Below, in pieces: positions 2,392-6,795 of a stretch of DNA of 64,000 bases. Within the stretch, counting starts at the first letter, position 1. Each line of letters starts with the position of its first letter. Position numbers and translations under genes: made by a program. The notes below the pieces were generated by a model that saw only the letters and a program-made list of their open reading frames with translations, was not told the origin of the DNA and did no database searches. The DNA comes from Escherichia coli (GTDB lineage: Bacteria; Pseudomonadota; Gammaproteobacteria; Enterobacterales; Enterobacteriaceae): the NCBI RefSeq assembly GCF_003334405.1, contig NZ_QOWM01000001.1; one strand, written 5' to 3'.

Positions 2392-2580
2392 AGCGCAAAT
2401 ATTCCCTTGCACAAAACAAAGTGGTAAGTATGCAAAGTGGGATGGCGCAATTCATTGATGCAGCGCAGTTAAGCAAGATAATCAGAAAGGATTAATGCAA
2501 ATTAAGAGAATAAAAAACCGGAAATAGTGATTATTTCCGGTTCAGATATCCGCAGCGCAAAGCTGCGGATGATGACGAGA

Positions 2581-4725
2581 TTACTGCTGCTGTGCAGACT
2601 GAATCGCAGTCAGCGCGATGGTGTAGACGATATCGTCAACCAGTGCGCCACGGGACAGGTCGTTAACCGGCTTGCGCATACCCTGCAGCATCGGCCCGAT
2701 GGAGATCAGGTCGGCAGAACGCTGTACCGCTTTGTAGGTGGTGTTACCGGTGTTCAGATCCGGGAAGATGAACACGGTAGCGCGACCTGCAACCGGAGAG
2801 TTCGGCGCTTTGGATTTCGCAACGTCAGCCATTACCGCAGCGTCGTACTGCAGCGGACCGTCGATCATCAGGTCAGGACGTTTTTCCTGCGCCAGACGAG
2901 TTGCTTCGCGAACTTTTTCTACGTCGCTACCTGCACCAGAAGTACCGGTGGAGTAGGAGAGCATAGCAACGCGCGGTTCGATACCGAAGGCCGCAGCGGA
3001 ATCAGCGGACTGAATCGCGATTTCTGCCAGCTGTTCAGCGGTCGGATCCGGGTTGATCGCACAGTCACCGTAAACGTAAACCTGTTCCGGCAGCAGCATG
3101 AAGAACACGGAAGATACCAGGGAGCTGCCCGGTGCAGTTTTGATCAGCTGCAGCGGCGGACGGATGGTGTTTGCGGTAGTGTGAACAGCACCGGAAACCA
3201 GACCATCAACTTCATCCTGTTCCAGCATCAGCGTACCGAGCACCACGTTGTCTTCCAGCTGTTCGCGGGCAACGGTTTCGGTCATGCCTTTGTTCTTACG
3301 CAGTTCGACCAGACGACCAACATAGCTTTCGCGAACCACTTCTGGATCAACGATTTCAATCCCTGCACCCAGTTCTACACCCTGAGACGCTGCAACACGG
3401 TTGATCTCTGCCGGATTACCCAGCAGTACGCAAGTTGCGATACCACGTTCAGCACAGATAGCGGCTGCTTTAACGGTACGCGGTTCGTCACCTTCCGGCA
3501 GTACGATACGTTTGCCCGCTTTGCGCGCAAGTTCAGTCAGCTGATAACGGAACGCAGGCGGAGACAGACGACGGCTGCGCTCAGAAGTGGCAGTCAGAGA
3601 TTCGATCCAGTCAGCGTTGATGTAGTTAGCAACGTATTCCTGAACTTTCTCGATACGTTCGTGATCGTCAACCGGAACTTCCAGGTTGAAGCTCTGCAGG
3701 CTCAGAGAGGTCTGCCAGGTGTTGGTGTTCACCATAAATACCGGCAGGCCGGTAGCGAAAGCACGTTCGCACAGTTTAGAAATGCGCGCGTCCATTTCGT
3801 AACCGCCAGTCAGCAGCAGGGCACCGATTTCTACGCCGTTCATGGCTGCCAGGCAAGCGGCCACCAGCACGTCAGGACGGTCTGCGGAAGTCACCAGCAG
3901 AGAACCGGCACGGAAGTGCTCCAGCATGTGCGGAATGCTGCGTGCGCAGAAAGTGACGGATTTAACGCGGCGAGTATTGATGTCGCCTTCGTTGATGATG
4001 GTCGCATTCAGGTGGCGAGCCATATCGATCGCACGAGTCGCGATCAGGTCAAAGCTCCACGGCACAGCGCCGAGAACCGGCAGCGGGCTGGATTCTTGCA
4101 GCTTCGCCGGATCAACATTGTTTACTTTAGCTTTGGAGGAGTCGTCGAAAATCTCGGACAGATCCGGGCGAGTACGACCCTGTTCATCAACCGGTGCGTT
4201 CAGTTTGTTAACGATAACGCCGGTGATGTTGGTGTTTTTGGCACCGCCGAAGCTGTTGCGGGTCAGTTCGATACGCTCTTTCAGCTGTTCCGGGGTGTCA
4301 GTGCCCTGAGACATAACGAAGACGATTTCCGCATTCAGCGTTTTAGCGATTTCGTAGTTCAGAGACTGGGCAAACTGGTGCTTACGTGTCGGGACCAGAC
4401 CTTCAACCAGAACGACTTCAGCGTCTTTGGTGTTAGCGTGGTAGTTTGCGACGATCTCTTCCATCAGCACATCTTTCTGATTGCTGGAAAGCAGACCTTC
4501 AACGTAGCTCATTTTCAGCGGTTCAGCGGCCGTCGTGGTGGAAGAGTTCGCACGCACGATAGTCGTAGTCTGATCGGGCGCATCGCCACCGGTACGCGGC
4601 TGAGCGATAGGTTTGAAAACGCTCAGACGAACGCCTTTGCGTTCCATTGCACGGATCACGCCAAGGCTGACGCTGGTCAGACCGACGCTGGTTCCGGTAG
4701 GGATCAGCATAATAATACGGGACAC
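2581..4725 (-). CDS. pta: Phosphate acetyltransferase
   Basis: 714-aa ORF, GTG start; N-terminus [22 protein letters not shown] and full length match E. coli Pta. Confidence 0.97.
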
Positions 4726-4799
4726 GGTTTATCCTCTTTCGTTACCGCCGATTTGGCGGGTTACAAAACAGCACCGCCAGCTGAGCTGGCGGTGTGAAA

Positions 4800-6002
4800 T
4801 CAGGCAGTCAGGCGGCTCGCGTCTTGCGCGATAACCAGTTCTTCGTTGGTTGGGATAACCACCGCAGGACGGGTACCTTCTTTGTTGATGAAACCAGATT
4901 TGCCGAAACGTGCAGCCAGGTTGCGTTCATGATCAACTTCAAAGCCCAGCACGCCCAGTTTGCCCAGAGACAGTTCACGAACCATTGCGGCATTTTCACC
5001 GATACCACCAGTGAATACAACAGCGTCCAGACGACCATCCATCAGCGCAGTGTAGGCACCGATGTATTTCGCCAGGCGGTGGCAGTAAACGTCCATTGCG
5101 CGCTTCGCGTCTTCTTTCGTCGCGTAGTTGTCTTCAACATAGCGGCAGTCGCTGGTCACTTCGGTCAGACCCAGCAGGCCAGACTCTTTGGTCAGCAGTT
5201 TGTTGATTGCGTCAACGCTCATGCCCAGGGTGTCGTGCAGGTGGAAGATGATCGCCGGATCGATATCACCAGAACGGGTACCCATGACCAGACCTTCCAG
5301 CGGGGTCAGGCCCATAGAGGTGTCAACGCATTTACCGTTGCGGATAGCAGAAACGGAACCACCGTTGCCCAGGTGGCAGGTGATGATGTTCAGTTCTTCT
5401 ACCGGTTTGTTCAGCATTTTTGCCGCTTCCTGGGTTACATAGAAGTGGCTGGTGCCGTGCGCGCCGTAACGACGGATGCCGTGCTCTTTGTACAGGTTGT
5501 AAGGCAGGGCGTAGAGGTAAGACTCTTCCGGCATAGTCTGGTGGAACGCGGTGTCAAATACAGCAACGTTTTTGTCTTTCAGCTGTGGGAAAGATTTCAG
5601 AGCTTCTTCGATACCGATCAGGTGAGCCGGGTTGTGCAGCGGTGCAAAAGAAGCTGCATCTTTGATACCCTGAATAACAGACTCATCGATCACTACGGAG
5701 CTGGTATACTTTTCGCCGCCGTGTACGATACGGTGACCGATAGCAGTCAGCTGCGCAGACAGTTCTGGTTTTTGTGCCAGAATAGTATTAACGATAAAGT
5801 TGAGCGCTTCGCTGTGAGCGGCGCCTGCACCTAAAGCCGCTTCCTGTTTATTGCCGTCCATTTTCCATTTGATACGTGCTTCGGGCAGGTGGAAACATTC
5901 GGCTAAACCAGAAAGGTACTCTTCACCATTTACTGCATCGATGATGGCAAATTTCAGTGAAGAACTACCGCAGTTCAGAACCAGTACTAACTTACTCGAC
6001 AT
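4800..6002 (-). CDS. ackA: Acetate kinase
   Basis: 400-aa [23 protein letters not shown]... is the acetate kinase signature N-terminus; located upstream of pta on the same strand. Confidence 0.97.
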
Positions 6003-6339
6003 GGAAGTACCTATAATTGATACGTGGCTAAAAAAACGTCAGGGAGCCATAGAGCGTAGCGCATGATGACACCGACATTTATGATTAACATCATGCACTG
6101 CAAATTTTTTTTGCATGATGGAAGAAATATCTTGAGTCTATGCCATTTTGCGTAATTTTCAGCCAATGGCATAATGTATATGAATTTGACGACTCAATGA
6201 ATATGTACTACTTAGGCCTTCAGGCTGCTAAAGGATACCTGATAGTGGGTATGGAAGACAAAATGTTTTGAACGTTGTCCCGCTGAGTTGTGAATTTGCA
6301 CAAATTTTTGAATCTTTATATGTGAAGTTGAGGTGAAGC
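6003..6339. promoter_or_regulatory. Divergent ackA / yfbV promoter region (AT-rich)
   Basis: 337-bp AT-rich non-coding spacer between divergently oriented ackA and yfbV; individual promoter elements not mapped. Confidence 0.4.
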
Positions 6340-6795
6340 ATGTCAACGCCGGATAATCGTTCTGTTAATTTTTTTAGCTTGTTTCGCCGGGGACAGCATT
6401 ACTCAAAGACGTGGCCGCTGGAAAAACGCCTTGCCCCGGTCTTTGTCGAAAATCGCGTTATCAAGATGACGCGTTATGCGATCCGTTTTATGCCGCCGAT
6501 CGCCGTATTTACTCTCTGCTGGCAGATTGCCCTGGGCGGTCAGCTTGGGCCGGCAGTTGCCACTGCCCTGTTCGCCTTAAGTTTACCCATGCAGGGATTG
6601 TGGTGGCTGGGCAAGCGTTCTGTCACGCCATTACCCCCTGCAATCCTTAACTGGTTTTATGAAGTTCGCGGTAAATTGCAGGAGTCTGGACAGGTGTTGG
6701 CACCCGTTGAAGGCAAGCCTGATTACCAGGCATTAGCTGACACGCTTAAGCGCGCCTTCAAACAACTGGATAAAACTTTCCTTGATGATTTGTAA
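6340..6795 (+). CDS. yfbV: Inner-membrane protein, UPF0208 family
   Basis: 151-aa ORF with two hydrophobic helices; position between ackA and yfbU as in K-12. Confidence 0.85.

Follow-up and report, generated by a model that had tools for sequence, protein, structure and literature searches.

Adjacent genes that share a transcript raise the question of how their products could be made in unequal amounts, and for ackA and pta the question has some weight: AckA and Pta make and consume acetyl-phosphate, which is a global signal and a donor of acetyl groups to proteins, so the AckA:Pta ratio matters. In the 64,000-nt stretch of Escherichia coli DNA that we analysed (hereafter the window), the ORF list places ackA at 6002..4800 (400 aa) and pta at 4725..2581 (714 aa, with a GTG start), both on the minus strand, and between them lies a spacer of 74 nt at 4726..4799. 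The ackA-pta region of E. coli K-12 MG1655 is 100% identical to that of the window, which is K-12-like. Of 5,426 complete E. coli genomes, 5,424 carry the spacer in a single copy, with no annotated feature beneath it; the E. coli variants that were inspected differ at unpaired sites, namely in the loop of hairpin 2 and at the base that separates the stop codon from the stem. Read as RNA, the spacer runs UUUCA-CACCGCCAGC-UCA-GCUGGCGGUG-CUGUUUUGUAAC-CCGCC-AAAUC-GGCGG-UAACGAAAGAGGAUAAACC, and the features that concern us here are the following.

4800..4802, minus strand: ackA stop codon UGA (ORF end and sequence); hairpin 1 starts 5 nt downstream
4772..4794, minus strand: hairpin 1, with 5' arm CACCGCCAGC at 4794-4785, loop UCA at 4784-4782 and 3' arm GCUGGCGGUG at 4781-4772
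4763..4771, minus strand: U-rich tail CUGUUUUGU, directly 3' of hairpin 1 (sequence)
4745..4759, minus strand: core of hairpin 2, CCGCC / AAAUC / GGCGG, just upstream of the pta Shine-Dalgarno (RNAfold)
4734..4742, minus strand: ACGAAAGAG, predicted in the MFE structure to pair with the U-rich tail (4771-4763) as the lower stem of hairpin 2
4732..4736, minus strand: pta Shine-Dalgarno GAGGA, 6 nt upstream of the GTG (sequence)
4723..4725, minus strand: pta GTG start codon (ORF list and MG1655 RefSeq annotation)

A preliminary description of this DNA had pointed to a GC-rich hairpin followed by a U-rich stretch on the minus strand and to a second short stem, and both hairpins together with the U-run are recovered by RNAfold. 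Hairpin 1 is a perfect stem of 10 bp, eight of them G-C pairs, closed by a 3-nt loop, with an energy on its own of -18.9 kcal/mol; the minimum free energy of the whole spacer is -35.8 kcal/mol as compared to -18.2 +/- 3.2 kcal/mol in 200 dinucleotide shuffles, none of which does as well (z = -5.57). Hairpin 2 has a 5-bp core that is extended by UUUUGU:ACGAAA pairing, and ACGAAAGAG reaches the first two bases of the pta Shine-Dalgarno. An alternative pairing of GGCGG in the 3' arm of hairpin 1 with CCGCC in the 5' arm of hairpin 2 was rejected, since it is, by eye, far weaker than hairpin 1 and is also absent in lineages in which hairpin 2 is GCGCC/GGCGC. The core palindrome CCGCCAGC-N2-8-GCTGGCGG is present in a single copy in the 64-kb window, where 0.00 copies are expected from 100 shuffles. 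We also considered a REP/BIME or other dispersed repeat, which is ruled out by the occurrence of the element at one place per genome in 5,424 E. coli genomes and once in the window. A search of 2400..6600 against Rfam 15 (E <= 10) returned chance-level matches only, the best of those over the spacer scoring 15.5-16.8 bits (E 7.8-7.9), far under the gathering scores.

How good a terminator this would be is a matter of degree. A terminator scan flagged hairpin 1 with its tail as a terminator-like element at 4794..4772, and the tail CUGUUUUGU, with six U in nine nt, passes the scan, which asks for five or more T in 8. Short as it is, the U-run is also broken, with C-U-G preceding UUUU, and by a T score formula of the d'Aubenton-Carafa type the tail scores 1.66, against about 5 for U8. 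Because of this short, interrupted U-run and its low T score, hairpin 1 and its tail are borderline as a terminator. Of the features by which an intrinsic terminator is recognised, three are found here, namely a G+C-rich stem-loop, a U-rich tract directly 3' of it and published in vivo 3' ends within that tract.

Those ends come from a TRS analysis of term-seq and RNAtag-seq data for MG1655, which lists a 3' end on the plus strand at 2414700-2414713 with its peak at 2414705/6 (PMC10687069). Converted by way of the position of pta in the TRS tables (MG1655 2414747-2416891), the peak corresponds to 4767/4766 of the window, which is in the UUUU run, 5-6 nt past hairpin 1. The same source assigns this end to the class 'Alternative primary in TU, ackA', prints the same hairpin with an energy of -20.1 kcal/mol and gives P-values of 1e-39 to 1e-153 in several term-seq and RNAtag-seq datasets (PMC10687069). 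For comparison we used the terminator at the end of the operon.

2505..2543, minus strand: terminal pta terminator (scan: hairpin 2543..2515 and a U6 run)

The published 3' end of this terminator (MG1655 2416961-4, about 2510 of the window) has an Rbar, i.e., L/(L+D), of 0.99-1.0, versus 0.75-0.92 for the end in the spacer (PMC10687069), and from the lower value in the spacer it follows that part of the signal there continues downstream. Full-length primary transcripts mapped by SMRT-Cappable-seq comprise ackA alone (operon b2296, TSS 2413305), ackA-pta (b2296|b2297, TSSs 2413246, 2413333, 2413426 and 2413430) and pta alone (TSS 2414486) (PMC6131387), and all three gene sets match RegulonDB units. 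Both the terminated and the read-through transcripts that characterise a leaky attenuator are thus listed, the ackA-only entry having a TSS of its own at 2413305, so that a shared promoter is not strictly shown. In the passages of two papers where Kakuda 1994 is cited on this point (PMC6085430, PMC5670510), the only transcripts credited to it are ackA-pta and pta-only.

Published maps therefore do not show an exclusively bicistronic transcript; they contain ackA-only and ackA-pta transcripts and a 3' end in the spacer. They agree with the earlier proposal that pta is uncoupled from ackA by a partial terminator or a processing site, in data that do not tell termination from processing; the 3' ends seen by term-seq and by SMRT-Cappable-seq could equally be left by termination or by an endonuclease cut after which exonucleases trim the RNA to a stable stem. 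No 3' end at ackA, at pta or at 24146xx/24147xx figures in the curated Term-seq list of Adams et al. 2021, which carries little weight here because the pta terminator is missing from it as well; among the Rho-dependent (bicyclomycin-sensitive) regions of the same authors there is none at 24146xx-24147xx, the neighbouring entries being 2408961 and 2416989. Full-text literature searches found neither a study dedicated to the ackA-pta intercistronic stem-loop or terminator nor an in vitro termination assay or a mutational measurement of the efficiency of this element. The TRS tables also hold a further RNA 3' end in the yfbV-ackA intergenic region, at about 6132-6140 of the window on the minus strand (MG1655 2413332-2413340, plus strand; Rbar 0.54), which lies within the long leader of the upstream ackA TSSs and near TSS 2413333.

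The preliminary description had also invoked an internal promoter for pta. The published pta-only TSS lends support to such a promoter, and places it inside ackA, not in the spacer.

4986..5020, minus strand: internal pta promoter region, with the published TSS at 4986, a candidate -10 GAAAAT at 4997-4992 and a candidate -35 TTGTAT at 5020-5015, separated by 17 nt

This TSS (MG1655 2414486) is 261 nt upstream of the pta start and 187 nt upstream of the ackA stop codon, and pta-only transcripts therefore cross hairpin 1 too. The assignment of the two hexamers is a reading by eye, the strict promoter scan having made no call; on the minus strand the scan found no sigma-70-like site in or near the spacer, and by eye there is no credible -10/-35 pair inside it. 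The candidate -10 GAAAAT coincides with the codons for Glu-Asn in GGIGEN, a conserved motif of acetate kinase, and its final T (codon AAT) occurs in Escherichia and in only three other loci, nearly all other genera having AAC (L002-L081), so that from the aligned sequences the internal promoter looks lineage-specific. Because the -10 T is almost restricted to Escherichia, we take the spacer structure to be independent of the internal promoter, in which case it must serve transcripts that come from upstream of ackA. An in-frame ATG of ackA (4985-4983, minus strand) begins one base downstream of the TSS at 4986. The pta-only transcript could thus serve as a near-leaderless mRNA that encodes the C-terminal 61 residues of AckA, and its ribosomes would also reach the UGA before hairpin 1.

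What sets the spacer apart is its conservation. A scan with the Pta N-terminus, with one genome taken per species, yielded 80 Enterobacteriaceae loci, from all of which the ackA-pta spacers were extracted; the pta start codon is GTG in 78 of these and ATG in two, and the distance from the ackA stop codon to the stem is 5 nt in 67 of the 80 species and never exceeds 13 nt. Where the spacer is uninterrupted (69 loci), the 8-bp core CCGCCAGC/GCTGGCGG, the TTTT run and AGAGG are all invariant, and the tail reads CTGTTTTGT in 59 of them; the loop of hairpin 1 in these loci comes in 20 sequence variants of 3-6 nt. Of 70 four-fold degenerate sites in the flanking coding DNA, only seven are invariant over all 80 loci. 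Conservation as strong as that of the hairpin suggests that the level of read-through is under selection. When the alignment was widened with Salmonella, Providencia, Hafnia, Serratia, Erwinia, Dickeya and Plesiomonas, all 370 stem cells of hairpin 1 (370/370) were found to pair and three pairs to carry compensatory changes, a result reached by none of 500 shuffles. Compensatory changes in hairpin 1 are seen in Serratia (with the stem CACCGUCAGC/GCUGACGGUG), Dickeya, Providencia and Erwinia, with a U-run after each hairpin, and in distant Enterobacterales the U-run stays with the hairpin although the sequence further downstream is unrelated. Outside the Enterobacteriaceae hairpin 1 is kept, whereas the downstream structure is not conserved. 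Hairpin 1 and its U-run are, in these alignments, conserved as one unit. At the same ackA-pta position, Vibrio cholerae and Glaesserella carry hairpins that are not homologous. The end of the operon offers a contrast: in the 95 nt downstream of pta (L002-L081), the terminal terminator is replaced by several unrelated hairpins across genera, with REP-like elements in some species, so that the terminal terminator has turned over repeatedly and the internal hairpin 1 has remained invariant.

The interrupted spacers are found in 11 of the 80 species, where an element of 120-310 nt sits inside the loop of hairpin 1 and both arms and the U-run are retained. The groups that bear it are the Citrobacter amalonaticus group, Intestinirhabdus, Klebsiella and Raoultella.

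L010, L020, L022, L025, L045, L046, L051, L057, L061, L067 and L071: ERIC-like inserts, just upstream of position 1501 (e.g., L046:1301-1500)

ERIC/IRU elements are imperfect palindromes of about 125 bp that occur in many copies in transcribed intergenic regions, and judging from the insert core and the primer sequence the inserts are presumably ERIC/IRU. The 125-nt insert of Klebsiella oxytoca (L046) matches a median of eight places per E. coli genome at 80-92% identity and folds as a long hairpin, which the arms of hairpin 1 are predicted to close. Close relatives within Citrobacter differ in the element, which is present in L020 and L022 and absent in L021, and the E. coli spacer is without it. 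In Yersinia pestis (L082:1319-1500) the spacer is about 165-180 nt long and holds an ERIC-like long hairpin, without the CACCGCCAGC hairpin 1 and without the U-run; the pta start called in that locus (ATG at 1501) is downstream of the conserved GTG TCC CGT start. A further peculiarity is that the 3' arm GCTGGCGG of hairpin 1 (4774-4781, minus strand) is one mismatch away from the Chi octamer GCTGGTGG. All ERIC-bearing alleles except L025 and L061 have exactly GCTGGTGG as their 3' arm, still paired by way of a G-U wobble. The resemblance to Chi is probably a coincidence.

We consider it probable that hairpin 1 and CUGUUUUGU make up a leaky Rho-independent terminator, or intra-operon attenuator, lying 5 nt past the stop codon of ackA. 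Some of the polymerases that set out from the ackA promoters would release their RNA in the U-run and so give rise to ackA-only mRNA, the 3' end of which would be capped by the 10-bp stem and shielded from 3' exonucleases; the remaining polymerases would read through to make the bicistronic ackA-pta mRNA, and the promoter inside ackA would add pta transcripts, at least in Escherichia. Leaky terminator and internal promoter together would let the AckA:Pta ratio depart from 1:1, and the placing of the one after ackA and the other inside it would explain in simple structural terms how the two genes come to be expressed unequally. In the read-through RNA the spacer would form two adjacent hairpins, the second of which would take up the U-run, directly upstream of the pta ribosome-binding site; within this folding model hairpin 2 is most likely a structural insulator for independent initiation at the pta GTG. 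We infer that the 3' end is made by termination and not by trimming, and also that a ribosome stopping at the ackA UGA would sit over the start of the 5' arm, make termination less frequent and favour read-through. The sRNA SdhX bears on this last point, as it lowers AckA by repressing ackA translation and Pta is reported to be unaffected, which runs contrary to a simple ribosome-dependent read-through unless the internal promoter compensates. The stop codon is 5 nt from the stem in most of the species, and the reported indifference of Pta to SdhX does not support a ribosome-modulated terminator.

Several other accounts of the same structure have to be weighed. The 3' end in the spacer could arise with no stop of the polymerase at all, if the bicistronic RNA were cut in the U/A-rich single-stranded segment between the hairpins and trimmed back to hairpin 1, which would then only protect the ackA fragment, as REP hairpins protect the malE fragment. 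We regard this as unlikely, though by no means negligible: the U-run is weak and interrupted, 3'-end mapping is equally compatible with trimming, the U-rich single-stranded segment is flanked by two stable hairpins and offers GU|UUU to RNase E, which prefers RN|WUU, and other genera have at the same spot ERIC elements, which are reported to modulate how stable the neighbouring cistrons are. A U-run would be superfluous in a pure exonuclease barrier, however, and the invariant UUUU travels with the hairpin in distant Enterobacterales; SMRT-Cappable-seq, which is directed at primary 5'-triphosphate ends, shows ackA-only molecules, though it is silent on the origin of their 3' ends; and the published datasets that we examined hold no 5' end in the spacer. 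The perfect 10-bp inverted repeat and its unusually strong sequence conservation could also bring to mind a palindrome in double-stranded DNA that is bound by a dimeric regulator, or else a relic of a repeat or mobile element. This is scarcely credible for a repeat whose half-site spacing varies from 3 to 7 nt, whose arms are kept across an interruption of 120-310 nt in 11 species and whose compensatory changes preserve complementarity, not sequence; it is single-copy in E. coli genomes and in the window, and an RNA 3' end maps to its tail. The inserts that leave the arms in place and the variable length of the loop point to an RNA stem rather than a double-stranded DNA operator.

Two further possibilities concern what is done with the RNA once it is made. 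Selection may have acted on the pairing of the U-run with ACGAAAGAG, which would partly bury the pta Shine-Dalgarno in the read-through mRNA and leave hairpin 1 an accessory role. The pairing is predicted in nearly all species, with more than 96% of the alignment cells of the lower stem of hairpin 2 able to pair; L049, L079 and L074/77/78 are predicted to pair a different U/C-rich segment with GAGGAUAA, and the Shine-Dalgarno bases come out as mostly paired when 234 nt are folded in silico, a result that is too dependent on this arbitrary context and ignores the ribosomes on ackA. We find such translational control of pta very improbable, given that just two Shine-Dalgarno bases are involved in E. 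coli, that U-runs pair by chance with the A-rich flanks of ribosome-binding sites, that the lower stem is without compensatory changes and that it is hairpin 1, not the downstream structure, that is conserved beyond the Enterobacteriaceae. The changes in the lower stem are one-sided only and are no covariation evidence either for or against it. Compensatory changes are present in two of the five pairs of the hairpin 2 core (C-G to U-A in seven sequences and C-G to G-C in three), and a hairpin is kept at this position in per-species folds. We would give only a small chance to the idea that hairpin 1 is more than a tuned terminator, be it through a sequence-specific partner (ProQ or another RNA-binding protein), through an RNA of about 220 nt that starts at TSS 4986 or as a ribosome-sensing attenuator. 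The partner and the RNA are conceivable because the 8-bp core and the U-run are identical family-wide, in contrast to the repeated replacement of the terminal pta terminator; a ribosome-sensing attenuator, if true, would report ackA translation to pta transcription and help to set acetyl-phosphate levels. The RIL-seq-based tables of sRNA candidates have no ackA.pta node, and in the Hfq CLASH paper ackA figures solely as a target of SdhX.

As a leaky terminator, the ackA-pta element would join a familiar company. Leaky intrinsic terminators inside E. coli operons include the rplL-rpoB attenuator and terminator T1 of rpsU-dnaG, with which it shares a G+C-rich hairpin and U-run in the spacer, an in vivo 3' end at the U-run, partial read-through, unequal mRNA levels within one operon and an added internal promoter; it is unlike them in the unusual invariance of its stem sequence throughout a whole family. 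Like the REP/BIME elements after malE, a stable stem right after the upstream cistron could protect the mRNA of that cistron and raise the upstream:downstream ratio, but REP elements are multi-copy and without a U-run, whereas the ackA-pta hairpin is single-copy and has a conserved U-run that holds the 3' end. ERIC/IRU elements are co-transcribed between genes in Yersinia operons, and the likeness extends to a long RNA hairpin at the ackA-pta junction in 11 of the 80 species and another in the Y. pestis spacer; the difference is that the E. coli spacer has no ERIC and that elsewhere the element is inserted into the loop of a pre-existing hairpin 1. In the manner of sRNAs derived from 3' UTRs (SdhX, CpxQ, MicL), TSS 4986 and hairpin 1 could in principle bound an RNA of about 220 nt that ends in a terminator hairpin, although, unlike those sRNAs, ackA-pta is without a RIL-seq candidate node and without an Rfam match and has only four consecutive U to offer Hfq. 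The kind of element is classical, and for the ackA-pta instance public supplements and RegulonDB units already record the 3' end, the hairpin and the isoforms. Family-wide invariance, covariation and alleles with ERIC in the loop are refinements of a known kind of element, and the finding itself changes little.

Two irregularities in the annotation of the locus may be recorded here. In H12 (NZ_CP170101.1, 2269536-2270045), a derivative of E. coli BL21, the ackA-pta junction is in two pieces with an 'integrase' annotated between the genes, and the split probably reflects an engineered strain. In L082, L084, L086, L088 and L089, pta is called as two ORFs, an N-terminal one with AAA_26/DRTGG and a C-terminal one with PTA_PTB, which may come from frameshifts or sequencing errors; the 250-aa Pta query favoured truncated proteins, and the two-ORF records are therefore a selection effect.
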